A stretch of DNA of 60,040 bases from Candidatus Aminicenantales bacterium (GCA_049512315.1 JBEKXF010000020.1:1-60040); one strand, 5' to 3'. Numbered from the stretch's first letter, positions 29,711 through 50,205 are shown. Program-made: numbers and translations. Notes: generated by a model not told the origin, from the letters alone.

Positions 29711-30346
29711 TTATTCGTAGACCAGGATCTCGACGCGCCTGTTCTGGGCCCGGCCCTCGCGCGTGGTGTTGTCGGCGACGGGCACGGAGCTCCCGAGGCT
29801 GATGACCTGCATCCGATAGAGCGGGATGTGGTACTGCTTGTAGAGGTAGAGCATCACGGCCTCGGCCCGCTTCTGGCCCAGGGCCTCGTTGACGCTGTCC
29901 GGGCCGGAATTGTCGGTGTGCCCCTGGATCTCCAGGTACAGGCCCCTGTTCATTTCGATGAGCTGCTGGACGAATCTGTCCAGAGCCGCCTTGGCGTCGG
30001 CGCCGAGCTCGAAGCTGTCGAAGCCGAACTTGGCGTCGCCGCTCCGGAGGGTTTCCTTGTAGATGAGGTTCCCGCGGATCATCTTCTTGACGTCGTCGAT
30101 CTTCCCGTCCACGGCCTGGAACTGGGAATCATGCTTGGCGATGACCTCTCCGATCGAGGCCAGTTTCTCGTCGTGTTCCTTGAGCCGTTTTTGGCTGGCT
30201 TCGACCTCGGTGGCGACGTTCTCGACCTTCTTGTCGATCGTCGTCATCTCCCCCTGAACGTACTTCTTCGTGGCGCATCCGGGCCCGATCACCAGGGCGA
30301 TGAAGACCACTGCGCAGACATAGAGAGCGATCCGATTCCTGTTCAT
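29711..30346 (-). CDS. OmpA-family peptidoglycan-binding lipoprotein with a coiled coil
   Basis: Lipobox GPGC-ATKKYV, IQGHTD, LGQKRAEAV, GRAQNRRVEI. ATG 30346 after GGGAGG. Confidence 0.92.
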   Translation of the reverse strand: MNRNRIALYVCAVVFIALVIGPGCATKKYVQGEMTTIDKKVENVATEVEASQKRLKEHDEKLASIGEVIAKHDSQFQAVDGKIDDVKKMIRGNLIYKETLRSGDAKFGFDSFELGADAKAALDRFVQQLIEMNRGLYLEIQGHTDNSGPDSVNEALGQKRAEAVMLYLYKQYHIPLYRMQVISLGSSVPVADNTTREGRAQNRRVEILVYE

Positions 30347-30508
30347 GTTAACCTCCCTTCGTGTCCGGAAAGGGCGGAATCCCCGCCCCCGGACGCTCCC
30401 CATGAGCGCCCGGCCCGTGGCACTTTATATCATGATAACCTTTTTTCTACAGATTTTCAATCCCCGCAGCCGCCCGGAGATTCCCCGCCCGGGGGGGCCC
30501 GGGCCTGT

Positions 30509-31474
30509 TCAATAGCCCTCCCGGGTCCGGACCTTGTACCTCTTGTTGGCCGTGACGACCCTGATCTTCCGGTAATCTCCGGTCACGTCCTTATAGGAGG
30601 TGTACCCGATGAGGTACTGCTGGCTCTGCTCCTTCTTGAGCTCCCGCAGGGCCCCGTACATTTCCTCCGGCCGGTTGACGAAGACGGCCTTCCCGCCGGT
30701 CGCCGTTGAGAACCGGTCGAGGGTCTCGACGATCCCCGCTGAGGTCAGGGCCTTGGCCCGCTTGAGGGCCTTGAGGACCTGCTCGTCCAGGGGGATCTTG
30801 TAGCCGATCGTGTAGATGGGCACGTCGACCCGGCGGGCGATCTCCACGGCCTCGTCCGGAGTGACGCGGCTGTCGTTCTCGACCCCGTCCGTGATCAGGA
30901 GGAGGGCCCGCTTTTCGTTGTGTCCCCGGTTGGCGAACTCGGGGGACACGGCCACGGCGTCATTGAGGGCGGTCTGCCCGTAGGCGTTCGTCGCCTCCAG
31001 GACCTTGAGGAACTCGGTCCGGTCTGTTGAAAAGGGGGCGGCGACCTCCACCTGGCCGTCGGCGAAGATCAGGAGGGAGACCTCGTCGCGGGGGCTGAGG
31101 ACGAAGTTGACCAGGTTCCTGAGGCCGACCTTGGCTTCCTCGAGCTTGTTGAGGACGGCCATGCTGCCGCTCACGTCCAGGAGGACCGTCAGGCTCAGCG
31201 GCGCGTCGAAATCGTGCTTGAAATACGTGATGGGCCGCTTCTCGTTGTTCTCGTAGATCGTGAAGTCCTTGTCCGTCAGGTCATTGATGTACTTGCCCCC
31301 GCTCGTCTGGACCGTAACGGCGATGGTGATGGCGCTGACCGTGACGTCGACCCGGATGTCGTCGGCTTTCTTTTTTTTCTGTTGGGGAAAGGACGGGCCC
31401 GCAGCCGCGACAGCCAGGGCCAGAAGGAGGGCCGGGAATAAGAGCGTGCGTTTCATGGGATCGCCGATCGTCAC
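30509..31474 (-). CDS. Exported VWA-domain protein (Acidobacterial VWFA-related type)
   Basis: DLTDKDFTIYEN, MIDAS DVSGS, TALNDA, ITDG, TGG, QYLIGY. GTG start overlaps the kinase stop (GTGA); alternative ATG at 31456. Confidence 0.9.
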   Translation of the reverse strand: MTIGDPMKRTLLFPALLLALAVAAAGPSFPQQKKKKADDIRVDVTVSAITIAVTVQTSGGKYINDLTDKDFTIYENNEKRPITYFKHDFDAPLSLTVLLDVSGSMAVLNKLEEAKVGLRNLVNFVLSPRDEVSLLIFADGQVEVAAPFSTDRTEFLKVLEATNAYGQTALNDAVAVSPEFANRGHNEKRALLLITDGVENDSRVTPDEAVEIARRVDVPIYTIGYKIPLDEQVLKALKRAKALTSAGIVETLDRFSTATGGKAVFVNRPEEMYGALRELKKEQSQQYLIGYTSYKDVTGDYRKIRVVTANKRYKVRTREGY

Positions 31475-33618
31475 AACAGTTTCAGCAACGCCTGGAAGCT
31501 GGGGTGGCCGCGCAAAGGGTCCAGGTTGCTGTCGTGTTCGAACCAGCCGCGCTGGGTCAGCCCCCTGTCCACGGCCCTCTCGAGGACGTTGATCGCCATC
31601 TCAGTCTCGCCGGCGACCGAGAAGATGCAGCCGACGTTATAGAGGACCATGGGCTCGTCGGGCTCCTGGGCGATCGCGGCCCGGGCCCATTCGAGGCCCT
31701 TCTCCCGGTCGCCGAGGATGAGCAAGGCGTTGGCTCCCATATAGCGGGCCCGCGTATCGTCGGGGTGGAGCCGGAGGATTTCCTCCGCCTTTCGGAGGCC
31801 GCGGCGGCGGGCGGCCGTGGCCATCTCGGGCTGGCCGAGGTCGTCGTAGATCTGGGCGACGAGAGTCGGGGACTGGTAGTCTTCGGGACGGAGCGCCTCA
31901 GCCGCTTCGTACAGGCGGGCCGCCTTGGGTGAGTCTCCGCTGGCGAAAGAGTGCCGGGCGTAGAAGTAGCGGGCCTCGAACAGCCCGGGGTCGAGCCGAA
32001 GCGCCTTCTCGAAGGCCGCGACGGCCTCGTCGTTGCGGCTGGCGACGGACATGGCCACACCCCAGGACGCCTGGGCTTCGGCCAGATCCGGGTCGAGCTC
32101 GATGGCCTTCCGGCTGGCCGCCTCGGCCCGCTGGATATTTTCGGGGACGCGGGCCACGTAAAGATAAAAGAAACAGTAACAGTCGGCGACCCCGGCCCAG
32201 GCCCTGGCGTAGGACGGGTCGAGCTCGATGGCCCGCTGGAACATCTCGAGCGCCATCTCCACCCCCCGCCGCCGGTATTGATAGTAATATTTCCGGCCCC
32301 TGAGATACTGGTCGTAGGCCCGGACGTCGGAGGTCGAGGGCTGGCCGAGCGCCTCGTGCTCGCTCCGGCTGAGGCTGACGTTGAGCGCGTCGGCGATGCT
32401 GCGGGCGATCTCCTCCTGAATGGCGAAGATATCGGCGAACTTGCGGTCGAACGTCTCGGACCAAAGGGCGAAGCCGCTAGCCCCGTCCACGAGCTCCGCG
32501 GTGACCCGCAGGCGGTCGCCGGCCTTGCGGACGCTGCCCTCGAGCAAGGCCCGGACCCTGAGACGGCGGGCGATCTCCCGGCTGTCGAGGGCTGTGCCCC
32601 GGAACCGGAACGAGGACGTCCGCGAGGCCAGCCTGATCCCCGCGACCCGGGTCAGGGCGCCGATGATCTCGGCGGCGATCCCCTCGCAGAAATACTCCTG
32701 GTCCTTCTCCCGGCTGAGGTCGACGAAGGGAAGGACGGCCACCGAGGCATCGGAGGCTCTGGCCGTCGTCTCATCGAGCATCCGGAGGCTCGCCAGCTCG
32801 TTACGGAGCTCCAGAGTGCTGGCGAACCGGTCCTTCGGGTTTTTGGCCAGGCAGTTCTCGAGGATGCGGTCGAGCTCGGGAGGCAGCTCCGGCCGGCGGG
32901 CCGAAGGGGGCTCCGGCTCGTCCTTGAGGATGGAGGCCAGGAGCTCGGTCGTCGTGTCGCCGCCGAACGGACGGCCGCCCGTGGTCATCTCGTAGAGCAT
33001 GACCCCGAAGGAGAAGACGTCCGAGCTCCGGTCCACGGGCCGTCCCTGGGCCTGTTCGGGCGACATGTAGGGAAGCGTGCCCTCGACGAACCCGGGCCCG
33101 GCGATGGTCATGGTGTCGCCTCCTACAGGCCGGGAGACAGGGACCCGGACCTCCGCGATCCCGAAGTCGAGGATCTTGGGGCGCCCGTCAGCCATGACGA
33201 TGACGTTCCGCGGCTTGAGGTCCCGGTGGACGACCCCCCGGTCATGCGCGGCGGCGAGGGCGTCGGCCATCGGCACGGCCAGGTCCAGAAAGCGCTCGAG
33301 GGGGAGCCCCTTTTCGGGGATCAGGGCGTCGAGCGTGCGTCCGCGGACAAGCTCCATGGCCAAGAAATGCTGGTTTTCTGCTTCCTCGACGGCATAGACG
33401 GTGACGATATTGGGATGGTTGAGGGCGGCCAGGGCCCGCGCCTCCTGCTCGAGACGGGACAGGCCCTCGGGCGAGGCGGCGATCTGGTCGGCCAGGAGCT
33501 TGACTGCGACCTCACGGTTGAGGCGGGTATCGAGGGCCCGCCAGACGACCCCGCCGCCGCCCTGACCGATGAGCTCGATCAGGCGGTAATGGAGAAGGAG
33601 GTCGCCCGGCTGGATCAT
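31471..33618 (-). CDS. Ser/Thr protein kinase with TolB-like and TPR domains
   Basis: GQGGGG, VAVK, HRDLKPRN, DFG, YMSPEQ; SVAVLPFVDLS...EYFCEG domain; TPR repeats; no TM segment evident. Confidence 0.93.
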   Translation of the reverse strand: MIQPGDLLLHYRLIELIGQGGGGVVWRALDTRLNREVAVKLLADQIAASPEGLSRLEQEARALAALNHPNIVTVYAVEEAENQHFLAMELVRGRTLDALIPEKGLPLERFLDLAVPMADALAAAHDRGVVHRDLKPRNVIVMADGRPKILDFGIAEVRVPVSRPVGGDTMTIAGPGFVEGTLPYMSPEQAQGRPVDRSSDVFSFGVMLYEMTTGGRPFGGDTTTELLASILKDEPEPPSARRPELPPELDRILENCLAKNPKDRFASTLELRNELASLRMLDETTARASDASVAVLPFVDLSREKDQEYFCEGIAAEIIGALTRVAGIRLASRTSSFRFRGTALDSREIARRLRVRALLEGSVRKAGDRLRVTAELVDGASGFALWSETFDRKFADIFAIQEEIARSIADALNVSLSRSEHEALGQPSTSDVRAYDQYLRGRKYYYQYRRRGVEMALEMFQRAIELDPSYARAWAGVADCYCFFYLYVARVPENIQRAEAASRKAIELDPDLAEAQASWGVAMSVASRNDEAVAAFEKALRLDPGLFEARYFYARHSFASGDSPKAARLYEAAEALRPEDYQSPTLVAQIYDDLGQPEMATAARRRGLRKAEEILRLHPDDTRARYMGANALLILGDREKGLEWARAAIAQEPDEPMVLYNVGCIFSVAGETEMAINVLERAVDRGLTQRGWFEHDSNLDPLRGHPSFQALLKLL

Positions 33619-33727
33619 GGTAAGACTCCGCGCTTATTCTACCATCCGGGAGGCCCACACGCCAAGGGGAGAAGGGATGATGTTGAGCTATTTCCAAGGG
33701 ATTTGCCTGCCGACACCCCCGGAGGCC

Positions 33728-33756
33728 TTGACATCGGGTCACTCCGCGCCTATTAA
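33728..33756 (+). promoter_or_regulatory. Sigma70-type promoter of the TPR lipoprotein
   Basis: TTGACA-17nt-TATTAA. Confidence 0.55.
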
Positions 33757-33793
33757 TAATATTAAAGGATTGAAGGTTGGGCCGGAGAGAAAA

Positions 33794-34552
33794 ATGAGAT
33801 CAAAGCCATTAGCCGTCCTCGGATTCTGCTTGTTCCTGGGGTCCGCCTGCGCCAGCCGAGCGATTCCTCCCTCGCCGGTAGCGACGCCTGGAACGAGCTT
33901 CTTTGACTTTCACATGAAGCAGGGGCTTTCCTTCCTGGCCCAAGGTGACTACGGAAGGGCCGCCGATGAGCTTCGGGCGGCCGTGGAGAACAGCCCGGCT
34001 TCGTCCAAAGCCCATAATTACCTGGGGCTCTGCTATTTCCGTCAGAGGGCTTACGACCCGGCCCGGGAGCAGTTCGAAAAGGCGGTCGCCCTGGACTCGT
34101 CTTTTGCTACGGCCTACAATAACCTGGCCGGCGTTTATTCCGTCAAATCGCAGTTCGCCAAGGCCGAGGAGCTGTACAAAAAAGCCCTCTCCCTCTCGCC
34201 CGACATGATCTCCGCCAATTACAGCCTGGGCATCCTGCTCTTGAACCTCGGGCGGACCGAAGAAGGTGCCCCCTACCTTTCCCGGGGGATCGCCCTCGAC
34301 CCCGATTACCTGGACAAGTACAAAGAGCTTGTCACCACGTTCTCCTCCCTGTCCTTTGACATGAAGGAATCCTACTTCGCCTATGCCAAGGCCTACGCTT
34401 CCGCGGGGAATATCGAGAAGACCGTGGATTATCTGGAGAAGGCCCGGAAGGCCGGGTTTGGGGAGTGGCAGCGCATCCTCAGGGAAAAAGAATTCGAGAG
34501 AGTCCGGGACGACCCGAGGATCCAAAATTTCCTGAAGGATCAAATTTCCTAA
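33794..34552 (+). CDS. TPR-repeat lipoprotein
   Basis: MRSKPLAVLGFCLFLGSAC lipoprotein signal; TPRs AHNYLG, AYNNLA, ANYSLG. Confidence 0.88.
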   Translation: MRSKPLAVLGFCLFLGSACASRAIPPSPVATPGTSFFDFHMKQGLSFLAQGDYGRAADELRAAVENSPASSKAHNYLGLCYFRQRAYDPAREQFEKAVALDSSFATAYNNLAGVYSVKSQFAKAEELYKKALSLSPDMISANYSLGILLLNLGRTEEGAPYLSRGIALDPDYLDKYKELVTTFSSLSFDMKESYFAYAKAYASAGNIEKTVDYLEKARKAGFGEWQRILREKEFERVRDDPRIQNFLKDQIS

Positions 34553-34714
34553 CCGGGACCTTAAGGGTGTATTTTCCCGGCCTCAGGCCTTCGAAAAGGA
34601 AAAGCCCCTTTTCGTCCATGACCTGCAGATGGATTTCGTCTCCCGCGCGTTGACTTGCCTTTCGGCTCTGTATTATGATGCTTCTTGAGAGTCACGGGAT
34701 AGGGGAGGTGAGCG

Positions 34715-35371
34715 ATGACTCGTCCAAAAGTCGCTTGGAAGTCCCTTCGGCGTGCGGCGGATGTCCTGCTTACCCTTGTTTTTCTGGCTTCGTGCGGGGT
34801 CAACATGATGCCGACCGGAGACGTCTGGTATACCCAGCACTACTACATCATGCAGGATTTCGAAAGGACCGTCTATCGGACGCTGTCCGAGGCTGGGAAA
34901 AAAGAGTTCCACGACCTCTTCTGGGCCACCAGGGATCCCGCTTCCAGGACGATATTCCAGGAAAGGCTGAGCTACACCATGAACGCCTATAAGAGGGAGA
35001 ATTCCGGCCAGCCTTGGAACACCGACCGGGGCAGGATTTACCTCCTCAACGGGCCCCCGGCGGCCATCGACGTCGATCAGAACATAAGTTGGGGCACACA
35101 GATCGGTCAGCCGGCCAACTACGCGGTCGACCGCAGCAATGAGGACGTCCAGGCCTACCGGGCCGAGGTCTGGACGTATTCCATCCAAAAACAGTACGTC
35201 AAGTATGCATTTATTTTTGTCGCGCCCAACGAATGGAAGTTGTCGCCCGCCCTCGTCGCAGGCAGTAAGTACATCGGTGAGCTCGAAAATTACGGCAAAA
35301 TGGTAACTTTCGGAATCCGCAACCCGGAAACGTACAAACAGGACCTGGAAGCGCTCGAAAAGAAGAAATAG
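34715..35371 (+). CDS. GWxTD-domain lipoprotein (compact PWNTD variant)
   Basis: Lipobox LASC; FWATRDP...QPWNTDRGRIYLLNGPP...EVWTY; RBS GGGGAGG. Confidence 0.82.
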   Translation: MTRPKVAWKSLRRAADVLLTLVFLASCGVNMMPTGDVWYTQHYYIMQDFERTVYRTLSEAGKKEFHDLFWATRDPASRTIFQERLSYTMNAYKRENSGQPWNTDRGRIYLLNGPPAAIDVDQNISWGTQIGQPANYAVDRSNEDVQAYRAEVWTYSIQKQYVKYAFIFVAPNEWKLSPALVAGSKYIGELENYGKMVTFGIRNPETYKQDLEALEKKK

Positions 35372-35454
35372 GCGCAGCCCGTTTCTAGTGCCCTTTCTCC
35401 TCTTGCCGAGCCGGCTGGTCCGTTTTCCCCGGGAAGCGTTCATAGAAGAGGCTG

Positions 35455-35493
35455 AAAAAGAAAAACCCGCCCCGGCCGGAGCCGGGGCGGGTT
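35455..35493 (-). terminator. Intrinsic terminator of the TonB-dependent receptor gene
   Basis: Perfect 13-bp stem AACCCGCCCCGGC-CGGA-GCCGGGGCGGGTT with an A-run on its left (U-tail on the minus strand). Confidence 0.85.
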
Positions 35494-35519
35494 CGTGCCG
35501 TCGCTAGAACTGGATCAGG

Positions 35520-38500
35520 TCAGAACGAGAATTTCACTCCCAGACGAGCTTGGATCGGGGCGAAGAAGGCGCTGGCCTTCATGAACGTGCCGTCCAATGG
35601 GCTGTCAGCAGGAGGCTCCCACGTTTTGGTCAGGAGAGTGGCGTCGCCGGGGAAGACGTCGGTCCTGTACACGTTGGTGTTGATGTACGTGGCGGTTTGG
35701 ACGTTGAAGATGTTGCTCAGGTTGACGCTGAACGCGACGGAGTACCGGCCGCCCAGCCGCAAGTTATACTCGACATAGGCATCCGCGTAGTACAGGAAGG
35801 GGGTCCGGCCCAGGTCGCCGCGGTTGAAAGGGTAGTAGCCGGGGCCACTGACGTTCCAGGACGTGCTCAGCGGTGTCCCCGACATGGCCTGCATGACCGT
35901 GCCGACGGTCAAGCCCATGGGGAAGACATAGCTGCCATAGAGTTTGAACACAAGCGGCCGGTCGGTCGCGAGCGGGCCGTCAATCGCGTTCATGTTTTTG
36001 TCCCACTGGAACTGCCACAGGTCGAAGGACCGCTCAGCGTTCGGGTTGTCGCGGCCATTTTCGTCGGAGCTGGCCAGGCCGGAATAGTTGCCTCTCAGGC
36101 TGCTCCATGTCGCCGAAAAGCCCAGGAGCCAGTTGTTGGCCAGCCGCTTGTCGAAGCCGAGGTTCACGGCCCAGTAATCGCGCTTGGCCTTGGGCGCATA
36201 GGGCACTCCCTCGGGCATCAGACCGGCGGCTTTGGCCTCGTCATACTTCTCGTTAATGAAGGGGGAGCCGATCCAGGTGTAATAGTATGATTCACCGATG
36301 TCTGGAAGAACAACGCCCTGGTCATCGATGGCGTAGAGGACCGACTTGTTCACGACGCGAAGGTTGACCGAGAAGTTCTCGAAAATCTTCTTGTCGATGC
36401 CGAAGGCGATTTCCCGCTGGGTAAAGGGTTTAATGTTGGGGTCGACCTGGTTGAAGGACGGGGCCCGGAAATCGAGGGTCGTCAGATGCGTCCCTGGGTA
36501 ATTGCCGTTGACCCCGATCGTGGTGAAATCGTAGGTGTCGAGGGTGTAATAGGCGCTTTTCCACTTGAAGCCGCCGAAGGCGGCGGACGCTATGTAGAGC
36601 TTCATGACGTCCTGGTAGATGGCGAAGGAGCCGTAGATCTTGAGGCTCGAGTCGCCGTTGACATCATAGACAAAGCCCAACCGGGGTGAGATCTTCTTCT
36701 TGAAGGGGAAGTTGATGCCCTTGAGATTGGCGTACAGCGGATCCTGGCTGTAGCTCGGGATGTACTCGGACTCGGTGCGGACGCCGGCATTGATCGTCAG
36801 CTTGCGGGCGATTGTCCAGCTGTCCTGGAGGTAAAAGGCCCACTGGTTGCTGAACGCGTCATAGACAGAGCCGTAGGGGCCGGAGTCTGCGTTTCCCCGG
36901 ACGCCGTACCAGCCATACGTGCCGGTGTTGTATGAGGTGCCGTAAATGCTGAACGTCGGATGAAGGGCAGGGTCGAGCCAGGCGAGGTAAACAATGGGTG
37001 CTTGGGCCCCCTGGTTGACGTTTTCGCCCTGGCGGATGAACTGACCGCCGATCTTGAAGGCGTGTTCGCCGCCGAGGCTCGCGAAGTATGTCAGGTCGAG
37101 GTTGAAGTTATACTTCGTCCGGATGGTCTTTGAGATGCCCATGACGTTTGCGCGGGGAAAGTCCGCCCAGCCCGAGGCGTGCTGGAGATCCGCGGGGATG
37201 TCCGGAAATATCTCGTTAGTAGTTGAGGCATAGCTGAAGGGCTGTTCCATAAAGAAACCGTAGTACGGAGTCGTTGTAGCGCTGGGCTCCTGGCCGTTCT
37301 GATTTGTCCTCCACCAACCGGCGCGGGCGCTGACCATGAGGTTGCTGCTGACGATCCAGTCGGCGTTGCCGCTGGCGCTCATGTTCGGGTAGTTGAACTG
37401 GTAGGCGTCATAGTTCAGCGTCGGGCTCGCGCTCCAGGCACTGGGGAGGCCGTTAGCGCTGCCGCGCACCATCGCCTCGTTGTTGATGATGCTGCCGCTC
37501 ACGCGGAGGTTCTGGAAGGGTTGGGCCGAGATCTTGGCCTGGCCGTTCCAGTTCACCTGATGTTGATAGACATCCCTGTTGAGGCTGGAGCTGAGGCCCT
37601 GGACGGTGTAGTCCATATACCGGGTGGTCGTATTATAGTTGGGCATGGCCGAAAGGAAGAACCAGACCCGGTCTTTGATGATGTAGCCGCCCAAGTTGAG
37701 CCCGCCTTCGATATTGTGCCACTGCTGTTTGCCGACGTACGTGCTATACGGGTAGTAGACGACCGTCTGGTCAAAAGACGAAGTGTCGAACTTGTTGTAA
37801 TCGAGGATATCGGGGCGCCGGCCCGTCAGTGCTTCGTCGTTGTAATAGCCCAGGACCTCGCCGTGATACGCGTTCCCACCCGACCGGCTGAGGACATTGA
37901 TCACGCCGCCCAGGGAGCCGCCGTACTCGGCGTTGTAGCCCGACGATTTGAAGTTGACCTCTTCGACGAAGTCGTAGTTGACCCCCTGGCCGCTCGTGCC
38001 GAAGATCAAGTTGGTCGTGCTGATGCCGTCGACATACCACATGTTCTCGGCACCGGAGGCGCCGTCGACGGAGGTGCCGGCGAGCATGGGCTCGTTGGTC
38101 ACGCCGGGCACCGTGACCAGCAAGGAGTCAAAGTTTCTGCCCTTGGGCAAGACATCGAAAACCTGCCTGTTCATCACCGCGCCCCGGGCCGTGCTCTTGA
38201 CGTCGATGAGCGGCGACTGGCCGACGACCGTAACCTGCTCGGCGATCGCGCTCGCAGTCAAGGTGACGTCAATGGTCAAGGTCCCTTCGGCTTGGAGGAT
38301 GATGTCCGTCCGGAGGAGCGGCTTGAAGCCGGCTAAGGTGTACTCGATAGTATAGGTCCCTGGCGGAATGGCAAGCAGCCGGTAGCTGCCCTGAGCATTT
38401 GTCACTGCGGTGGCCTCGCCGACCAGGCGCGGCCCTTTCGCCGTGATGGAGACGCCGGGCAGCGGCCCCCCTTGATCGTCTACAACTTTGCCGAAGATTT

Positions 38501-38585
38501 GCCCCGTGGCCCGCTGGGCCGAAAGCGTGCCCGCGAGAAGCAGCGCGCTTATGGCCAGCAGAAAAACGGGTCGCAATTTCTTCAT
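35520..38585 (-). CDS. TonB-dependent receptor, Oar-like, with an N-terminal carboxypeptidase-regulatory-like domain
   Basis: Signal peptide, GKVVDDQGGPLPGVSIT, plug motif NAEYGGSLGGVINV, YLQDSW, SPRLGFVYD, C-terminal Phe (RLGVKFSF). Confidence 0.92.
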   Translation of the reverse strand: MKKLRPVFLLAISALLLAGTLSAQRATGQIFGKVVDDQGGPLPGVSITAKGPRLVGEATAVTNAQGSYRLLAIPPGTYTIEYTLAGFKPLLRTDIILQAEGTLTIDVTLTASAIAEQVTVVGQSPLIDVKSTARGAVMNRQVFDVLPKGRNFDSLLVTVPGVTNEPMLAGTSVDGASGAENMWYVDGISTTNLIFGTSGQGVNYDFVEEVNFKSSGYNAEYGGSLGGVINVLSRSGGNAYHGEVLGYYNDEALTGRRPDILDYNKFDTSSFDQTVVYYPYSTYVGKQQWHNIEGGLNLGGYIIKDRVWFFLSAMPNYNTTTRYMDYTVQGLSSSLNRDVYQHQVNWNGQAKISAQPFQNLRVSGSIINNEAMVRGSANGLPSAWSASPTLNYDAYQFNYPNMSASGNADWIVSSNLMVSARAGWWRTNQNGQEPSATTTPYYGFFMEQPFSYASTTNEIFPDIPADLQHASGWADFPRANVMGISKTIRTKYNFNLDLTYFASLGGEHAFKIGGQFIRQGENVNQGAQAPIVYLAWLDPALHPTFSIYGTSYNTGTYGWYGVRGNADSGPYGSVYDAFSNQWAFYLQDSWTIARKLTINAGVRTESEYIPSYSQDPLYANLKGINFPFKKKISPRLGFVYDVNGDSSLKIYGSFAIYQDVMKLYIASAAFGGFKWKSAYYTLDTYDFTTIGVNGNYPGTHLTTLDFRAPSFNQVDPNIKPFTQREIAFGIDKKIFENFSVNLRVVNKSVLYAIDDQGVVLPDIGESYYYTWIGSPFINEKYDEAKAAGLMPEGVPYAPKAKRDYWAVNLGFDKRLANNWLLGFSATWSSLRGNYSGLASSDENGRDNPNAERSFDLWQFQWDKNMNAIDGPLATDRPLVFKLYGSYVFPMGLTVGTVMQAMSGTPLSTSWNVSGPGYYPFNRGDLGRTPFLYYADAYVEYNLRLGGRYSVAFSVNLSNIFNVQTATYINTNVYRTDVFPGDATLLTKTWEPPADSPLDGTFMKASAFFAPIQARLGVKFSF

Positions 38586-38770
38586 AAAACTTCTCCTTTT
38601 TTCCCTATCCTTCTTTCCGAGGATGATTGGGATTTCTCAATACTTCCCTGAGAGCCCCCCATCCGTTCCCCCTGGGCAACGGGACGGGCGCGCTCTCCAT
38701 TCCAAGAGCCCGATAATAAATCATCAAGTCATTCGGCCTCCTCGTTCAGATTTCCTTACCCTTTTTAACT

Positions 38771-38787
38771 AGCAAAAAACGTGCCAA
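38771..38787 (-). promoter_or_regulatory. Sigma54 (-24/-12) promoter of the TonB-dependent receptor
   Basis: Minus strand reads TTGGCACGTTTTTTGCT, a full match to TGGCACG-N4-TTGCW, about 185 nt upstream of ATG 38585. Confidence 0.85.
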
Positions 38788-38912
38788 TGCGTACGATCGC
38801 CAGAGGGAGGGGAAATCCCGGAGGTCCCCGCCTGATTAACAGGGCGTAGGCCACATAAATTCGCCTCGCAGGGTCTTTTTTTTTAGGCTGAAAGTTGCGT
38901 CCCATTCATTCG

Positions 38913-38942
38913 TTTGGATTCAAATCCATTAATTTGGATTCA
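38913..38942. promoter_or_regulatory. Candidate enhancer (bEBP upstream activating sequence)
   Basis: TTTGGATTCA repeated at 20-bp spacing, with nested palindromes TGGATT-CA-AATCCA and AATCCA-TTAATT-TGGATT. Confidence 0.55.
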
Positions 38943-39129
38943 GGTGCCGCCACCCGCCGCTGCCGCCATCCGAGCATTCCGAGGTTTTATTGAGCCGATT
39001 ATATTGGGCAAAATCACCGTCTCTGTGGCAGGTGGCCACTCGCGCGCGGCAACGAGTGGGAGGCGGACTGCGTTCATGAAGATAGAGTTGATATTGGAAT
39101 GCCTTCGAATATGATACAATGAGAGCATC

Positions 39130-41229
39130 ATGAAGCGTCTGATTATTCTCGTCATTGGGCTTCTGCTCGTGTTATCCCTTGCCCTCTTCCTGCCAGGACC
39201 GGCCGCGGCCCAAGCCAAGAAGAAATCGTCCAAGGATCTTCCGCCGCAGTTCCGCAAGTGGCTCGAGGAGGAGGTCGTCTACATCATCACGCCGAAGGAG
39301 CGCGAAGTTTTCCTCCAGCTCGACAGCGATCGCGAGCGCGATATCTTCATCAATGCGTTCTGGAAGCAGCGCGATCCCACGCCCGATACGGACAAGAACG
39401 AGTTCCGTGAGGAGCATTATCGCCGCATCGCTTACGCCAACCAATGGTTCGGAAGGAGCTCCCCCGGTCCCGGATGGCGGACCGACATGGGCCGCATCTA
39501 CATCATCCTCGGAGAACCCAAGACGATCGACCGTTTCGAGAACCTGGCTCAGGTCTTCCCGACGATCATCTGGTTTTACGAGGGCCTGGGCTCTCTCGGC
39601 CTTCCCAGTTCTTTCAACGTCGTCTTTTTCAAGCAGGAAGGAACGGGGGGCTACGTCCTTTACAGCCCGATGAAGGACGGGCCACAGAAGCTCCTCAATA
39701 ACTACATGGGCGATATGACGGATTACGAGAGCGCCTACCTCCAGATGATGGACATCGAGCCGGCGATCGCCTACGTCTCGCTGTCCCTCATCCCCGGCGA
39801 AAGCCTGATTGCGCCCCGGCCGACGATGTCCTCGGATATCCTCCTCGGGAGCCGCATCCCGTCCGCCCCGTTCGAGAACGTCAAGGACGAGTACGCCGAA
39901 AAGCTCCTGCGGTACAAGGACGTCATCGAAGTCGACTATACGGCCAACTACATCGACAACGACGCCCTCATCCGGGTTTATCAGGACCCCGGAGGGTTCG
40001 CCTTCGTCCATTACCTCATCGAGCCCAAGCGCCTGACGTTCGCGCCCGTCGGGGACCGCTATCATGCGGACCTTGAGGCGGACGTCTCCGTGAAAGACCC
40101 GCAGGGCGGCGTCGTCTACCAGTTCGAAAGGTCCGTCCCTTTCGACATGACGGAGTCGCAGCTTGCAGCGATCCGTGGCAAGCTCTTCAGCTTCCAGGAC
40201 CTCTTCCCGCTCGTCCCCGGCTCCTACAAAATCAGCATCCTTCTCAAAAACCGCGTTTCGCGGGAGTTCACGTCCACCGAGGCCAGCTTGTTCGTCCCGG
40301 CGCCCGGAGCGTTCAGTCTCTACGCGCCGGTTCTCGCGAACAGGGCCGACACGGCCTCCCGGTTCCGCGGGCAGACCAAGCCCTTCCTTTTCGGCGGCCT
40401 TCAGCTGACACCTTCGCCGCGCAACGACTTCCTCCCCGGTGAAACACTCTACGCGTTCTTCCAGCTCCAGAACGCACCCGGGGATGTCCGGAACGGCGGC
40501 GTCGTCGAGTATGCAATCCTTAAGGAAACTGAAAAGGGGCCCGAGACTGTGTACGCGGTCACGAAAACCCTCGCCGAATACCCGGACCGGACGAACATAT
40601 TCGAGGAATTCTCCCTGGCGAACTATCCGGCCGCCTATTACATCCTCCGCATCTCCGTCCAGAACGCCGCCCATACCCAGCGTATCGCCGCGGAAGAGCG
40701 CTTTCTGGTCACGCCCCTTCCCGGGCTCATGCGGCCTTGGGTAGGGTGGCCCCCGCTGGCGCTGGCGCCGTCGAACGCGCCCCAGTTCCTCCACATCGTC
40801 GGGCTTCAGTACATGAACAAGAAGGACCTCGCCGAGTCGCGGCCCCTTCTCGAGGCGGCCGTCCGGAGCGACCCGAATTCGGCCTCCTTCGCCCTCGATT
40901 ACGCGCGGCTCCTTCTCGAACTCAAGGAGTATGCCGGAGTGAAGGCCGCCGCCCAGCCCTTCCTCGCCGACGAGCGGAAGTGGGAATTCCTCGAACCCGC
41001 GGGCCGGGCTTGTCAGGCCCTTGGCGAGCACGCGGAGGCGATTGCTTATTACAAGGATTACCTGGCCCATTTCGGGGCCAACCTGAATGTCCTCAACGCC
41101 GTCGGGGAGTGCTATAGCCAGGCGGGGGACACCGCGGAAGCTCTCGCCGCCTGGGAGCAATCGCTCCGGATCGAACCGAATCAGCCAAAGCTCAAGGAGA
41201 GGGTCCAAGAGCTCAAGCAAAAAAAATGA
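39130..41229 (+). CDS. Large exported GWxTD-domain protein with C-terminal TPRs
   Basis: Signal peptide; KWLEEEVVYIIT, FWKQRDPTP, NEFREEHYRRIAYAN, GWRTDMGRIYIILGEP; TPR tail. Confidence 0.92.
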   Translation: MKRLIILVIGLLLVLSLALFLPGPAAAQAKKKSSKDLPPQFRKWLEEEVVYIITPKEREVFLQLDSDRERDIFINAFWKQRDPTPDTDKNEFREEHYRRIAYANQWFGRSSPGPGWRTDMGRIYIILGEPKTIDRFENLAQVFPTIIWFYEGLGSLGLPSSFNVVFFKQEGTGGYVLYSPMKDGPQKLLNNYMGDMTDYESAYLQMMDIEPAIAYVSLSLIPGESLIAPRPTMSSDILLGSRIPSAPFENVKDEYAEKLLRYKDVIEVDYTANYIDNDALIRVYQDPGGFAFVHYLIEPKRLTFAPVGDRYHADLEADVSVKDPQGGVVYQFERSVPFDMTESQLAAIRGKLFSFQDLFPLVPGSYKISILLKNRVSREFTSTEASLFVPAPGAFSLYAPVLANRADTASRFRGQTKPFLFGGLQLTPSPRNDFLPGETLYAFFQLQNAPGDVRNGGVVEYAILKETEKGPETVYAVTKTLAEYPDRTNIFEEFSLANYPAAYYILRISVQNAAHTQRIAAEERFLVTPLPGLMRPWVGWPPLALAPSNAPQFLHIVGLQYMNKKDLAESRPLLEAAVRSDPNSASFALDYARLLLELKEYAGVKAAAQPFLADERKWEFLEPAGRACQALGEHAEAIAYYKDYLAHFGANLNVLNAVGECYSQAGDTAEALAAWEQSLRIEPNQPKLKERVQELKQKK

Positions 41230-42133
41230 AAGCCCGGGAAGGCATCTCGGCGCCTTGGTCCTCGCGATGACCGCTTTCGCTGCCGCCTGCGCCACATCCC
41301 AGGCCGTCAAGAGCTTGGACGGCGAGAGCCGGGATTTCCTTTCCAAGGTCCGTTACATCATTACGAAGCAGGAACGGGAACGCCTCCTGGCCATCCCGGC
41401 CGGAGACAGGAAAACGTTTGTGGAAGAGTTCTGGAAAAAGCGCGACCCCAGGCCGGAAACCGAAGTTAACGAATTCAAGGACTAGTACTTCGCCCGCATC
41501 GCCGAAGCGAACCATCCGTTCACCGAAGCCGCCGAGCCCGGCTGGCTCCAGGACCGCGGCCGGGTCTATATCCTGCTCGGCCCGCCCACGAACCGGATCA
41601 CCTACCCCCGAGGGATCACCTTCTACGGCCTGCCGACCGAGATCTGGTCCTACGGGTTCTTCCCGATCGTTTTCACCGACGCGTGGTGGAATGGCGACTA
41701 CAAACTCGACCCGCTGAGCGTCGAACAGCTCTCGATCCTCAACCGGGCCCAGATGGAATGGCAGCCCCAGATCGCGGCCAAGAAGGGGCAGATCGACTTC
41801 CGTGTCAAGGTCAAGAAAAACAAAGCCGGCCGGACTTTGGCCGAGGTCGCCATCCCCTTCCGGGCAATCTGGTTCGATGTCGTAGATAAGATCCTGCGGG
41901 CGACGTTCATCCTGACCCTCGATCTCATGGAGATGGACGGGAAGCAGATCCGGCAATCCCGGACCGAATACCCGCTCGAAATAACGGAAGACAAACTCCG
42001 GGAATCCTATGCCAAGAATCATGTCATCGAGGTTCCGGTCGAGGCGCGAGCGGGCGATTTTTGGCTAAGGCTGACCCTCGAGAACGCCAACGACGGAAGC
42101 AAAGCCTACAAGCGGATCAGACTCTCAATCTGA
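41226..42133 (+). pseudogene. GWxTD-domain lipoprotein gene with an in-frame TAG at 41483-41485 and an out-of-frame coupled ATG at 41226
   Basis: One frame reads ...AFAAAC ATS...VRYIIT...FWKKRDPRPETEVNEFKD*YFARIAEAN...GWLQDRGRVYILLGPP... and continues into the 41753..42133 ORF. Confidence 0.8.
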
Positions 42134-42361
42134 ACGCTTCTTCTGGGTGGGGCGAGCGCACGTCAATTCATTTGATCGGATAGCCGGAGCTCGGACGTCA
42201 TTCCCTTGATTCCGGGAAAATGATATAATGTTCCTTGTTGAGGTCAATGAACGGGACAACCGGGGGAGAGACCCGAGCCTGGAGAGGCATTTTCCCCTCC
42301 TGGATGGGCCCAAAGACATGGATGACATGATCCTTGCTTTCACAATGGTTGGAGGTCATGA

Positions 42362-43333
42362 ATGAACGCCAAAGCCCTTCGAACATTTTCGCTCGGTCTT
42401 CTGGTCATATTCCTTGCCGCCGGCCTGGTTTTTGCCCAAGCGGGACGCGGCACCGCCCGCCTCAGCGGACTCGTCATAGACCAGAATGGCAGGCCCGTCG
42501 AGGGCGCCCAGGTCACCCTGTCTTACGCACAGGGCGCGGGCGGAGCCAAACACGAGGCCAAAACCAGCAAGAAAGGCGAGTGGTCGTTCATGGGCCTGGG
42601 AACGGGTCAATGGGAGCTCGTGGTTGTCATGAAGGGCTATGAACCCTACACCCAGTCGGTCTCGGTCTCCCAGCTCACGCTCAACCCCAAGGTTGAGGCC
42701 AAGCTAAAGAAGGCCAGCGCGGGCACGGGAGGAGTCATCCAGGACGAATCGTCGTTCAGCTTTCTCGATCTGGGGAACCAGCTCTACAAGGACGGGAAAT
42801 ACGATGAGGCCATCGTCCAGTACCAGCTATTCCTGGAGAAAAACCCCCAGGCCTACCAGGTCCAGCTCAACATCGCCGATGCGTACCGGGAGAAGGGCGA
42901 GTTCGATAAAGCAACGGAACTCTACAACAAGCTCATCGAGCTCTCGACGGGCGACCCGACGTTGGGCAAGGAGATGGCGGGAAAAGCCCTGGCCGGCATC
43001 GGCAACATCTATCTCAAGCAGAACAAGCTCGCCGAAGCCCAGGAGTATTTCCGGAAGTCGATCGAACGCTCGCCTAAGGATGAGATCCTGGCCTACAACG
43101 TCGGCGAAATTTATTTCTCCAACCAGAACCTCGATGAGGCTCAGAAGTATTTCGAGCTGGCGACCCAGATCAAGCCGGAGTGGCCCGACCCGTACCTCAA
43201 GATGGGCTACGTGTATCTCAACAAGGCCGACAACGTCAGTGCCGTAAGAATGTTCGAGAAGTTTCTGACGCTCGAGCCCGAAGGCGAACGGGCGGCCCTG
43301 GTCAAGAACATTCTCAACACGATCAAGAAATAA
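42362..43333 (+). CDS. Exported TPR protein with an N-terminal carboxypeptidase-regulatory-like domain
   Basis: Signal peptide, GLVIDQNGRPVEGAQV...KKGEWSFMGL, about five TPRs; RBS GGAGG. Confidence 0.88.
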   Translation: MNAKALRTFSLGLLVIFLAAGLVFAQAGRGTARLSGLVIDQNGRPVEGAQVTLSYAQGAGGAKHEAKTSKKGEWSFMGLGTGQWELVVVMKGYEPYTQSVSVSQLTLNPKVEAKLKKASAGTGGVIQDESSFSFLDLGNQLYKDGKYDEAIVQYQLFLEKNPQAYQVQLNIADAYREKGEFDKATELYNKLIELSTGDPTLGKEMAGKALAGIGNIYLKQNKLAEAQEYFRKSIERSPKDEILAYNVGEIYFSNQNLDEAQKYFELATQIKPEWPDPYLKMGYVYLNKADNVSAVRMFEKFLTLEPEGERAALVKNILNTIKK

Positions 43334-43395
43334 AGCCAGCCGCGCGGCCGTTGGCTGTATCAAATTCCCCGTAAAAAAAGGGCGGACTGCCCTTC

Positions 43396-43642
43396 CCTGG
43401 CGTCCGCCTGCGCCAGCCGAGCGATTCCTCCCTCGTCGGCCGCGACGCCTGGAACGAGCTTCTTTGACCTTCACATGAAGCAGGGCCTTTCCTTCCTGGC
43501 CCAAGGTGACTACGGAAGGGCCGCCGATGAGCTTCGGGCGGCCGGGTTTGCAGAGTGGCAGCGCATCCTCGGGGAAAAAGAATTCGAGAAAGTCCGGGCC
43601 GACTCGAGGGTCAGGAATTTTTTGAAGAGCCAGGCGTCCTGA
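43396..43642 (+). pseudogene. Internally deleted duplicate of the TPR lipoprotein gene (33794-34552)
   Basis: 43396-43544 matches 33835-33983 and 43540-43642 matches 34450-34552. The two parts join at a GGCCG microhomology (471-bp in-frame deletion), and the start is missing. Confidence 0.9.
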
Positions 43643-43655
43643 CGGGAACGGAGAG

Positions 43656-43700
43656 TGGGGTGCCCGAGAGGATTCGAACCCCCGACCTGTGGATCTGGAG
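43656..43700 (-). other. 3' fragment of a tRNA gene (His-like C73-CCA end), probable att scar
   Basis: Minus strand: CTCCAGATCCACAGGTC-GGGGG-TTCGAAT-CCTCT-CGGGCAC-C-CCA. The D-arm and 5' acceptor strand are absent. Confidence 0.8.
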
Positions 43701-43743
43701 TGATCCGTATCCTGACCGTTAAAGCTCCCTTTCTGCCAGGTGT

Positions 43744-43964: not shown

Positions 43965-44267
43965 ATGGCGACGACCAAGAAAGGCTTCTTTGGGGGATCA
44001 ATTCTTGGACTCGTTTTATTGGCCGCACCACCCGCGAATGTAACTTTCCACGCCCGGAAGCCATATAAAGGAATGACGACCCGTTCGAGAATAGCCGGCA
44101 GAACGGCTCATTTCTTCTTTCGCTTGAAGTCGTTCGCCCGCGGCAATATACTCATGGATAAGCACGGGAAGCTCAATGAAATGCGATTGCGCGGCCGGCC
44201 GAATGCAGATATCCGGCCCATTCCGTTGACCGTCATTCGCTCGGCGCATTTCGGGGTCGAGCCATGA
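43965..44267 (+). CDS. Small basic hypothetical protein with a signal-peptide-like N-terminus (possibly a truncated gene)
   Basis: AAGGAG RBS; ATGA overlap with the ABC ATPase gene; atypical codon usage. Confidence 0.4.
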   Translation: MATTKKGFFGGSILGLVLLAAPPANVTFHARKPYKGMTTRSRIAGRTAHFFFRLKSFARGNILMDKHGKLNEMRLRGRPNADIRPIPLTVIRSAHFGVEP

Positions 44268-44941
44268 TCAAGCTGACGGCTCTGAAAAAATACTATCAGA
44301 TGGGAGAGACGACGGTCCGTGCCCTCGACGGAATCGACCTGCACATCCGGCGGAACGAGTTCGTGGCGGTGATGGGAGCGTCCGGCTCCGGAAAATCGAC
44401 ACTGATGAACATCTTGGGGTGCCTGGACAAGCCGACCGAGGGCTCGTATAGCCTGAACGGGAAAGAAGTCAGCCGTCTCAACGACGATGAGCTATCTTTC
44501 ACCCGGAATAAACACCTGGGATTCGTTTTCCAGAACTTCAATCTTCTTCCCCGTTACTCGGCTCTGAAGAACACGTACCTGCCGCTGAAGTACTCGTCCG
44601 GCCGCACGGAAGTTGGCATGGATAAGGCCGCCCGGATGCTGGAATTGGCGGGGCTCGCCGGGCGCCTGCATCACCGGCCGGCCCAGCTCTCCGGCGGAGA
44701 ATGCCAGCGGGTGGCCATCGCCCGGGCCCTGGTCAACGACCCGGATATCATCCTGGCCGACGAACCGACCGGCAATCTAGATTCCTTGACGGCCCACGAG
44801 ATCATGGCGTTGCTGCGGCAACTGCACCGGAGCGGCCAGACGATCGTCATGGTGACCCACGAAAACGACATGGCCGCCTACGCCGGCCGGATCATCTCCC
44901 TGAAGGACGGGAAGATCATCAATGATTCTGCCAAAGCCTGA
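44264..44941 (+). CDS. ABC transporter ATP-binding protein (MacB/LolD type)
   Basis: [31 protein letters not shown]. Confidence 0.95.
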
Positions 44942-46196
44942 ATCGAGACGCCGACGACAAAGGACGGCCGCTCTGGGAGCGATCGTCCTGGCCGGTGTCT
45001 CTCTCTTCCTGACGGGAAATGACCGCTCGCAACTCGATGCCAGCGGGCCGCGGGTAACAAAGGGGAACTTCCGGTCGACGATCCTCCTGACCGGGACACT
45101 GGTGTCTCTCCGGGCGGAGGAATTCAAGGTCCCGATCATCGAAAATTGGCGGGTCCAGATCAAGTGGATGGTGAAAGAGGGCGAATCCGTGAAACCCGGC
45201 GACCCCGTGGTCCGGTTCGACACGGCCAACCTCGCCTCCGATATCGAGACCGCCCAGGACTCGCTGCGAACCAAGCGCGAGGAGAAGGCCCAGAAGGAAG
45301 CCGACTATCAACATCAGAAATTCGAGCTGGACGTGGAAGTCCGGAAGGCCGAAAACGATAACCGGCAGAAGGAGATCGACGCGGCCATTCCCCCCGGACT
45401 CGAAGCCAAATATGAATACGACCGCAAGCAGCTCGATAAGAAGAGAAGCGATTTTTCGCTCGAAAGCGCCCGGACGAACAGGATGGTCAAGCTCGCCGAG
45501 GGCGAAAGCCAGATCAAGACTCTCGAAATCGAAGTCCGGGACCTCGAAGCCAAGCTGGAGAACCTGAAGAACAACCTGAGCGCTCTGACCCTCACCGCAG
45601 ACACCGCGGGCGCGGTGCTCTACGCCGTGGACGAGTGGAGCGGCAGAAAAGTCCAGGTGGGGGACACGGTCTACTCGACCTACGTGGTGGCCCAAATCCC
45701 CGACATGTCCTCGCTCAAAGTCCAGGCCTTGATCAGCGAAACCCACATTCAGCACATCAACATCGGAGAGAGCGTCGACCTCTCTCTGGATGCCTACCCG
45801 GACAAGCACTACCGGGGCGTCATCGGGGAGATCTCGAAGAGCGCCGAGACCGTCCGGCGCTGGGGACGGTCGCACTACTTCAGGGTCCAGATCGAAATGG
45901 AGAAGCTCGACCAGGAGATCATGAGGCCGGGGATGAGCGTCAAGTGCGAGGTCCAGGGCCCCCAATACGACGACGTCCTGCTCGTTCCCCTGGAGATGAC
46001 CCTTTTCGACGGACAGTCCTTCTGGATCCGGCCCGCCCGTGGCGAGCCGCTGAAACTCAAGGCGCTCGGCTTCAATGAGTTTCTGCTGGCGGTCGGCGCC
46101 GGTGAGAATTCGGCCGTCAAGCCGGGCCTGCCGCTTGCGCCGGTCGGAGTCCTGAAGGAAACCCGGGAGACAAAAGCCGATGAAACAAAGAAGTAA
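44922..46196 (+). CDS. Periplasmic adaptor / membrane-fusion protein 1 (HlyD/MacA-like)
   Basis: Lipoyl halves (EGESVKPGD, VQVGD), long coiled coil, MRPGMS. Confidence 0.88.
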   Translation: MILPKPESRRRRQRTAALGAIVLAGVSLFLTGNDRSQLDASGPRVTKGNFRSTILLTGTLVSLRAEEFKVPIIENWRVQIKWMVKEGESVKPGDPVVRFDTANLASDIETAQDSLRTKREEKAQKEADYQHQKFELDVEVRKAENDNRQKEIDAAIPPGLEAKYEYDRKQLDKKRSDFSLESARTNRMVKLAEGESQIKTLEIEVRDLEAKLENLKNNLSALTLTADTAGAVLYAVDEWSGRKVQVGDTVYSTYVVAQIPDMSSLKVQALISETHIQHINIGESVDLSLDAYPDKHYRGVIGEISKSAETVRRWGRSHYFRVQIEMEKLDQEIMRPGMSVKCEVQGPQYDDVLLVPLEMTLFDGQSFWIRPARGEPLKLKALGFNEFLLAVGAGENSAVKPGLPLAPVGVLKETRETKADETKK

Positions 46197-49852: not shown

Positions 49853-50154
49853 GGCGGTCCGGCCCAGTTGAGGGCGTCCTTCCAGGCAATCAGGAAAACG
49901 AGGGATGCGGCTGGGCGGACGAGGGACGACCTGAACGAAACCGGACTGGTCCTATTTATTTATCTGCGAACAGAATCATAATCTGCTTTATAAGTTCACC
50001 GCAGAAGGGTGGCGATTTGTCACTTGGGGTTTATGGACACCGGGTCCAAATGTTTCATTAGTATTGAACGCTGAGTCCTTTCCTTATTAATGCCGATAAA
50101 ACGGTAGAACCCTGCCCAAAAAAGTGAATATAAGGAAAACCGTGTAAACTTCGT

Positions 50155-50205
50155 TGGCTTGAAAATCTCACTTCAGAGGTGGTACATTGAGCGGGAGCAG
50201 GTCAA
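50155..50205 (+). repeat. Orphan IS3/IS407-type terminal inverted repeat, copy 2
   Basis: 47/51 nt identical to 1984-2034. Confidence 0.6.

Follow-up and report, generated by a model that had tools for sequence, protein, structure and literature searches.

The Acidobacteriota encode many outer-membrane barrels of the SusC/Oar type, and a search for SusD in five genomes came back empty, which raises the question of how these barrels are served. The question is posed by positions 29711-43333 of a 60,040-nucleotide stretch of DNA from Candidatus Aminicenantales bacterium (the whole stretch is referred to as the window), where nine adjacent genes encode a TonB-dependent barrel, three proteins of the GWxTD domain family (TIGR04514/PF20094), further proteins with tetratricopeptide repeats (TPR), a von Willebrand factor A (VWA) protein, a kinase and an OmpA-domain lipoprotein. 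An earlier note on this DNA had treated all nine as a single cell-envelope system. Synteny largely refutes this: the cluster comprises a five-gene core, which is one partly decayed copy of a recurring cassette (34715-43333), and four unrelated neighbours. This split of the nine-gene cluster is new, as is a two-gene form in which a single GWxTD gene directly precedes a gene for a CarboxypepD protein in 9/9 genomes carrying the partner gene.

Layout of the locus

All nine reading frames and their domain assignments were confirmed. The genes form four strand blocks, namely the OmpA, VWA and kinase genes on the minus strand, those of a TPR lipoprotein and a 218-residue GWxTD lipoprotein on the plus strand, the barrel gene alone on the minus strand, and the genes of a GWxTD-TPR protein, a broken GWxTD lipoprotein and a CarboxypepD-TPR protein on the plus strand. 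Export signals were assigned by eye and with a lipobox pattern, and genes in other DNA were called with a simple caller of our own, whose start positions are approximate. The core and its predicted signals are arranged as follows:

34715..35371, plus strand: core, GWxTD-only lipoprotein of 218 residues (PWNTD; TIGR04514 54 bits; model with predicted local distance difference test (pLDDT) 81)
35463..35494, minus strand: strong predicted hairpin terminator separating the GWxTD lipoprotein gene from the barrel gene, which run towards each other (stem of 14 pairs followed by a T run, consensus match)
35520..38585, minus strand: core, TonB-dependent barrel of 1021 residues with Oar/SusC architecture (PF13620, PF25183)
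38772..38786, minus strand: sigma-54-type -24/-12 promoter motif, 201 nucleotides upstream of the barrel gene (motif match)
39130..41229, plus strand: core, exported 699-residue protein of GWxTD domain, helical linker, two immunoglobulin-like (Ig) domains and TPR (GWRTD; TIGR04514 118 bits)
41226..42133, plus strand: core pseudogene, GWxTD-Ig lipoprotein of about 300 residues (GWLQD; TIGR04514 44 and 50 bits for its two pieces), its start overlapping the preceding gene's stop
42362..43333, plus strand: core, exported CarboxypepD-TPR protein of 323 residues (PF13620 plus TPR)

Conservation of the cassette

The genome from which the window derives holds 15 GWxTD matches and 11 full-length barrels of the window type. 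In counts that include the window's own locus, a GWxTD gene lies within 10 kb of seven of these barrels, against a mean of 0.51 under null placement (p 0.0002), and CarboxypepD-TPR and sulfatase-like TPR genes lie within that distance of five each (null 0.43 and 0.32). The corresponding numbers are two for VWA genes of any type (null 0.22, p 0.019), one for OmpA (0.29) and two for kinases (1.05). Adjacency beyond chance is confirmed for barrel, GWxTD and CarboxypepD-TPR genes and is not borne out for OmpA and kinase. In two further loci of this genome (L004, L005), the genes for barrel, CarboxypepD-TPR, sulfatase-like TPR and GWxTD-TPR proteins make up a plain operon on one strand.

Among 80 related GWxTD-TPR loci, many of them incomplete, profiles that include sequences from these same loci detected the barrel in 45, the CarboxypepD-TPR protein in 43, a sulfatase-like TPR enzyme with an active-site threonine (the Thr-type enzyme) in 29 and a long VWA paralogue of the TIGR03436 family in four; BLAST clusters gave 43, 43 and 28 for the first three. 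Of the 28 loci that span 19 kb or more, 24 contain the barrel. OmpA, the short VWA protein of the window and the kinase occur in none of the 80. In 38 regions round GWxTD clusters from four more genomes, the barrel was found 29 times, the CarboxypepD-TPR gene 22 times, the enzyme 14 times and the kinase once. Around the 218-residue GWxTD type, a set of 79 metagenome loci that leaves out one locus identical to the window contains the barrel in 44 cases (23 of the 31 long loci), 44 barrels there being 41-83% identical to that of the window, and the long TIGR03436 paralogue in 19.

In three complete genomes, one of which belongs to another class, 8/11, 6/9 and 8/15 GWxTD clusters lie no more than 12 kb from a PF25183 match, with null means of 1.95, 0.5 and 2.23, respectively; for G016, 54 of 92 barrel candidates were scored, which lowers the null of that genome. 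Moreover, paralogues of the GWxTD-TPR protein and of the barrel pick the same cassette in 51 of 100 comparisons over five genomes, compared with 28.7 by chance. Strand and gene order of the cassette vary widely between loci. Every one of the 26 genomes sampled from the order carries GWxTD matches, 4-16 per genome.

Viewed from the other side, an orthologue of the window's VWA protein was found in 19/26 sampled genomes of the order. At the 18 orthologue loci outside the own genome, the OmpA gene is its direct neighbour in 17, the eighteenth ending at a contig end; the kinase adjoins it in four, all of the same genus; a barrel gene starts about 9 kb away in one, and no GWxTD gene is present in any. 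Throughout the order, OmpA and VWA form a conserved gene pair of their own. Kinase and TPR lipoprotein have only an incidental connection to the cassette, the latter being encoded beside a small GWxTD gene in one of the 79 relative loci. Neighbourhood conservation, which the earlier note had named as a check of its proposal, thus extends to barrel, GWxTD and CarboxypepD-TPR genes and leaves out OmpA, this VWA orthologue, kinase and TPR lipoprotein. The OmpA protein, conceived there as the peptidoglycan anchor of the unit, drops out in view of its absence from all 80 loci, and a VWA component persists solely as the different, long TIGR03436 paralogue inside some cassettes.

Many cassette-bearing records (L018, L023, L024 and others) are titled 'uncultured Eubacteriales/Clostridia', and the best relatives are mostly titled Aminicenantes or Acidobacteria. 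The former titles are probably wrong, because these loci encode outer-membrane barrels.

The barrel and its promoter motif

The barrel protein is built, in this order, of a signal peptide, a CarboxypepD extension, a candidate TonB box, a plug, the barrel and a C-terminal phenylalanine. The extension matches PF13620 at residues 29-110, directly after the signal peptide (E-value 1.2e-16), and PF25183 scores above its cut-off. Positions 136-253 of the barrel profile (A5) match the plug regions of Cir, FepA and PfeA-type chains with E-values of 2e-12 to 1e-8; the Pfam plug model PF07715 gave no listing at E 0.01 in the scan of the single barrel protein. The putative TonB box, EQVTVVG at residues 116-122, shows conservation of 90% or more at its E and T over 54 sequences, and F1021 is invariant in the barrel profile. 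As for the energising partners, the genome encodes ten matches to TonB_C and two to MotA/ExbB, all on other contigs and none within the window.

A sigma-54 motif precedes five of the 11 barrels of the genome versus 15 of 2484 unlabelled genes, and in the related loci 23 of 46 barrels versus 4 of 455 other genes. The motifs of the genome stand before 21 genes in total, nearly all of them genes for exported proteins and five of them barrels; this set suggests an envelope regulon. One further member encodes what we take to be a pilin-like protein. An exported protein of 350-383 residues, without a Pfam family and likewise with a sigma-54 motif, recurs at the edges of GWxTD cassettes (L001:7975-9126, L021, L023, L030, L034, L191, L200, L208).

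The GWxTD proteins

All TIGR04514 scores listed above exceed the family cut-off of 28 bits. The 699-residue GWxTD-TPR protein was modelled with a pLDDT of 92.5 as a GWxTD domain, a helical linker, two beta-sandwiches and TPRs. The sandwiches resemble tandem Ig or fibronectin type III domains, for instance those of RbmA, in a generic match (E-value 1.6e-7, template-modelling score 0.3), and a wide fold search with the whole model was dominated by TPR matches. The GWxTD domain itself is modelled as a helical bundle with a small sheet, and 19 core positions are at least 85% conserved over 342 domains. It had no Foldseek match at E 0.001 and no sequence match in the PDB. Its best VIA-align Z over 48161 chains was 3.4. 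Together these results establish the domain neither as a new fold nor as one of BamE type; BamE (7txx) gave a Z of 2.2 (root-mean-square deviation 7.2, 63 aligned residues) and the BLIP-like 3d4e a Z of 2.6 (deviation 7.8, 73 aligned). In the ESM Atlas, all clusters retrieved came from the same lineage and were either unnamed or GWxTD clusters, and a search of plasmids found no GWxTD match. A Pfam scan of 107 small GWxTD proteins produced weak extra hits only, among them DUF2845 in five. The lipobox pattern occurs in 2/76 long GWxTD proteins, 36/54 of the mid-size ones and 48/107 of the 218-residue type.

The broken GWxTD gene is damaged at two places: a single base has been lost near 41232-41236, and a TAG stands at 41483-41485. 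The two lesions recur in contigs of the sequencing runs X1, possibly the source, and X4, the latter from another study, and are absent from the related strain X5 and from locus L017, where the gene is intact; the gene is therefore a true, strain-level pseudogene. Assembly error as its cause is ruled out by the reappearance of both lesions in the run of the second study. Contig C21 carries an intact paralogue pair.

CarboxypepD-TPR protein and Thr-type enzyme

The first domain of the CarboxypepD-TPR protein is homologous to the extension of the barrel (hhalign probability 99.0 against the barrel profile), and one of 45 such proteins has the lipobox pattern. A TPR-only exported protein of 320 residues is encoded between a mid-size GWxTD gene and the CarboxypepD-TPR gene in ten of the 80 loci (L044, L048, L053, L055, L064, L071, L074, L077, L079, L081).

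The usual partner missing from the window copy, the Thr-type enzyme, is encoded elsewhere in the genome. It joins a PF00884 domain to C-terminal TPRs, and its active-site motif is T-x-P-S/A-H, not C/S-x-P-x-R, in 8/8 aligned copies of the own genome and 33/34 related ones. By sequence, its closest solved matches are hydrolases, namely sulfatases and phosphonate monoester hydrolases. In many copies the N terminus consists of a basic tail and a single hydrophobic segment, a putative inner-membrane anchor.

GWxTD genes across the phylum

Tallies over 121 Acidobacteriota genomes, including the unpublished G048, showed at least one GWxTD match in 96. In eight genomes of one family, a single GWxTD gene each is accompanied by 25-114 barrel candidates. 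Directly after this single gene follows, in 9/9 genomes having it, the gene of an unannotated 570-residue CarboxypepD protein ending in Phe; these nine are all eight genomes of that family and one further, and this gene was found in only these 9/121 (loci L150-L153 and L155-L157, e.g. L155:7601-11211). The first 104 residues alone of this protein align to the barrel profile, and the rest is possibly a small, plug-less barrel. It has at least 1213 homologues, some of which carry the name Edaphobacter. A complex prediction with residues 21-568 of the CarboxypepD protein and 58-428 of the GWxTD protein of L155, the second Ig domain removed, gave no answer (score 0.02, mark 0.32).

The feature common to GWxTD neighbours is the CarboxypepD domain, which is found in the barrel, the TPR partner and the 570-residue protein. 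GWxTD proteins are hence often tied to CarboxypepD-bearing proteins, but neither one per barrel nor always.

Comparison with known systems

The locus would work like a TonB-dependent transporter locus of Oar/SusC architecture; it is not a SusCD locus by the SusD test and not a BAM (beta-barrel assembly machinery) locus. Oar of Myxococcus xanthus likewise consists of a signal peptide, a PF13620 extension, a plug and a barrel of about 1000 residues, with TonB/ExbB genes in the genome (PMC6434023). Unlike Oar, the window barrel has no adjacent exbB/exbD and no identified cargo, and it is accompanied by GWxTD, CarboxypepD-TPR and Thr-type enzyme partners; the words 'TPR' and 'Acidobacteria' are absent from the main text of PMC6434023.

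The SusC/SusD loci of Bacteroidota (PMC7782687, PMC11658791) share a barrel whose CarboxypepD-type extension precedes the TonB box, only putative in the window barrel, as well as lipoproteins encoded close by and, often, a hydrolase-fold enzyme. The putative TonB box resembles the DEVVVTG given for SusC in the former. In contrast, the gene downstream of the window barrel encodes a GWxTD lipoprotein on the other strand, not SusD. PF07980 (SusD) was not found in G000, G016, G018, G108 and G109 under a search that was positive in the Bacteroides thetaiotaomicron control and did not extend to other SusD-like models. Furthermore, the cassette partners have other domains, stand often on the opposite strand and are not present one per barrel, the enzyme is without the sulfatase Cys/Ser, and a sigma-54 motif takes the place of a locus sensor. 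Pfam detected no glycan-degrading enzymes and no sensor among the nine genes of the window, and no glycoside hydrolase in eight unlabelled recurring neighbour clusters of the 80 loci.

With the BAM accessory lipoproteins (the TPR protein BamD and BamE) the cassette has in common TPR and small alpha/beta lipoproteins that would act from the periplasm. The linked barrel, however, is of the PF25183/TonB-dependent type, not BamA/Omp85, and the TIGR03302 (BamD) hit on the TPR partner reaches 34 bits against a cut-off of 81. The Thr-type enzyme shares PF00884 with S1 sulfatases and the alkaline-phosphatase superfamily, and differs from S1 sulfatases by Thr at the Cys/Ser position, His at the Arg position, C-terminal TPRs and a frequent membrane anchor.

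In the literature searched, which was without supplements and with few subscription papers, no paper names GWxTD, TIGR04514, PF20094, TIGR03436, PF25183 or 'VWFA-related Acidobacterial', and none treats the cassette by title or abstract start.

Proposed mechanism

The account that we tentatively prefer is a barrel-accessory or assembly role. It may be that the cassette encodes a TonB-powered importer together with a periplasm-side accessory set, which would engage CarboxypepD-type domains, aid maturation or gating of the barrel and link it to an inner-membrane enzyme. We infer its contacts, direction of transport and substrate as follows. The barrel with its sigma-54 motif likely encodes the importer, import being preferred because most TonB-dependent transporters import (PMC11658791). 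The GWxTD and CarboxypepD-TPR products would likely form the accessory set, in which the small GWxTD lipoproteins may tether the soluble GWxTD-Ig-Ig-TPR protein. The latter, in turn, could engage proteins that start with a CarboxypepD domain, namely the barrel by its periplasmic extension and the CarboxypepD-TPR protein. The set might thereby help the barrel to mature or to gate, and bridge it to the inner-membrane-anchored Thr-type enzyme, which would process phosphate- or sulfate-linked cargo. For SusC, PMC7782687 describes the extension as an Ig-like domain of no known function, the deletion of which stops growth, an effect that its authors link to biogenesis.

There is a small likelihood that a more general statement holds, in which GWxTD proteins are the periplasmic partners of CarboxypepD extensions and the core of an apparatus that assembles or gates one class of outer-membrane proteins in Acidobacteriota, with the two-gene form in Edaphobacter-like members and barrel-specific cassettes in Aminicenantes that link the barrel to an inner-membrane Thr-type phosphotransferase or phosphoesterase. 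If GWxTD proteins are indeed extension partners, a domain of unknown function and a question of TonB transport would be tied together, and the single-copy two-gene form in Edaphobacter-named relatives makes the idea testable in cultured cells.

Several observations weigh against the preferred account. As many as 24 of the 25 GWxTD-free genomes of the phylum, five of which were identified from family tallies, keep PF25183 barrels, so that the partnership is not obligate; conversely, 7/96 GWxTD genomes are without a barrel match at E 1e-15, with at most seven candidates scored per genome. B. thetaiotaomicron, used as a control, has CarboxypepD-type barrels and no GWxTD match, and GWxTD is therefore not required by all CarboxypepD extensions. 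In L146, L148 and L149 the GWxTD gene follows tatC (TatC confirmed in L146), itself preceded by a presumably tatB-like gene, and in other lineages some GWxTD genes lie among unrelated genes. Within the own genome, the GWxTD loci L006-L009 on well-covered contigs have no barrel in view, and the window copy is without the Thr-type enzyme and has lost one GWxTD gene. In addition, 49 of the 100 paralogue comparisons in five genomes did not match, and the related genomes are kin, so that cassette counts overstate independence.

Alternative explanations

The alternative that survives best assumes co-inherited and co-regulated envelope genes without a physical complex, GWxTD proteins being general periplasmic folding or modifying factors whose paralogues duplicate in blocks with barrels. 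The three tatC loci, the occurrence of barrels without GWxTD genes and probably also of the reverse, the varying order and strand inside the cassette and the expansion of all cassette families in this lineage agree with it. We consider it unlikely, though not negligible, given that clustering holds in three complete genomes including one from another class, that GWxTD and CarboxypepD genes form a one-to-one pair in 9/9 genomes, and that other expanded families (30 kinases, six OmpA) do not cluster with barrels.

Rather unlikely, too, is an export machine, in which the barrel would secrete periplasmic cargo in the manner of Oar and PopC, TPR and GWxTD proteins would act as chaperones and the Thr-type enzyme would add a phospho-group. 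The T-x-P-S/A-H motif of this often membrane-anchored enzyme would suit such a role; head-group transferases have a comparable Thr motif and membrane anchor. The other sigma-54 motifs of the genome precede exported proteins, and the domain architecture is the same as that of Oar, which is required for PopC secretion (PMC6434023). Against this, 28% of TonB-dependent transporters have the Oar architecture, which is dominant in Bacteroidetes, whose SusC members import, and exbB/exbD flank oar (PMC11658791), which is not the case at the window locus. Neither does a recurring cargo gene appear among the neighbours in 80 loci, and the nearest solved relatives of the enzyme by sequence are hydrolases.

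It is improbable that the cassette represents a SusCD-like import unit in which a GWxTD lipoprotein covers the barrel at the surface and binds the substrate, the main example of the earlier note, where GWxTD partners replace SusD. The SusC-like barrel architecture, a lid role that is vacant in so far as PF07980 was not detected in five genomes (93-99% complete), and the small GWxTD proteins, which are often lipoproteins encoded beside one barrel clade, would be expected of such a unit. The idea fits poorly with the gene numbers in the phylum, as exemplified by the eight genomes with one GWxTD gene versus 25-114 barrel candidates; the GWxTD core hardly varies among 342 domains, unlike a substrate-specific lid; the commonest partner, the largest GWxTD protein, is without a lipid anchor; and the lipobox occurs in only 48 of 107 proteins of the 218-residue type.

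That the nine genes together, OmpA anchor, VWA and kinase among them, make one trans-envelope apparatus is highly improbable in spite of their adjacency in the window, the VWA genes near two of 11 barrels (p 0.019), the long TIGR03436 paralogue inside some cassettes and the VWA-OmpA pair two genes from a small GWxTD gene in L295, since OmpA, short VWA and kinase are in 0/80 cassette loci, GWxTD is in 0/18 VWA-orthologue loci with a barrel start about 9 kb off in one, and in G006 the kinase directly meets, without a cassette, the ATP-binding cassette (ABC) transporter block that lies right of the cassette in the window. Equally remote is export, by the window's paralogue clade, of poly-gamma-glutamate made by pgsB-pgsC-TIGR04332: pgsB follows the small GWxTD gene in 41/79 loci and pgsC in 30/79, pgsC is found in 21/21 genomes of the order, and in the own genome the pgs genes come after a block of CarboxypepD-TPR and sulfatase-like genes on contig C7 (G000:C7:71776-80474; also L211, L309, L310 and many of L235-L302), but from the pgsC side cassette genes come into view in 2/20 loci, which belong to a single genus (20 of 23 positive genomes covered, several regions short), pgsC is far from every GWxTD match in G011, G016 and G018, and the window copy is without pgs genes. 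As a general role of the cassette, polyglutamate export was rejected because the loci reached from pgsC did not bear out the link; pgsB, pgsC and TIGR04332 adjoin cassette genes among some members of a single family.

Neighbouring genes and insertion site

The genes and remnants that bracket the core are the following:

29711..30346, minus strand: not core, OmpA-domain lipoprotein with coiled-coil stalk (PF00691, lipobox)
30509..31456, minus strand: not core, short TIGR03436 VWA protein with intact metal ion-dependent adhesion site (MIDAS; profile plus residues)
31471..33618, minus strand: not core, cytoplasmic Ser/Thr kinase-TPR protein without signal peptide, one of 30 paralogues
33794..34552, plus strand: not core, TPR lipoprotein at the left cassette edge (TPR)
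43387..43649, plus strand: second copy of the TPR lipoprotein gene with internal deletion, at the right cassette edge (94% and 79% identity)
43656..43702, minus strand: diverged 3' half of tRNA-Arg(CCG), attachment (att)-site-like, with 6 mismatches to the genome's tRNA-Arg(CCG) half

The VWA protein scores 152 bits with TIGR03436 (cut-off 81) and has the MIDAS residues DVSGS, GQTA and LITDG. On its left the cassette is bordered by the TPR lipoprotein gene, and on its right by the internally deleted copy, which is 94% identical to 33826-33983 and 79% to 34445-34559 and is followed by the tRNA half. The cassette presumably entered a variable site next to OmpA-VWA; OmpA-VWA, kinase and TPR lipoprotein would then be the older neighbourhood next to which a cassette copy landed.

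The tRNA fragment was also considered as tRNA-Trp, which was rejected on account of its match to Arg-CCG. Counting whole tRNA genes, the 3' half of tRNA-Arg(CCG) has 21 matches in the genome G000 (contigs C2, C14, C24, C26, C27, C28, C34, C39, C43, C55, C66), and several of these lie 0.1-2 kb from kinase-TPR genes (C26, C34, C43, C14). The arrangement resembles islets that are repeated in tandem at a single tRNA and carry kinase paralogues. The region 44264-60040 is island-like, its ABC/HlyD exporter genes being 85-94% identical to those of G006 and the flanking genes 70-85%. The G+C content drops to 46-51% at 50-54 kb of the window, and the frame at 55645-55908 presumably encodes an IS3-like transposase.

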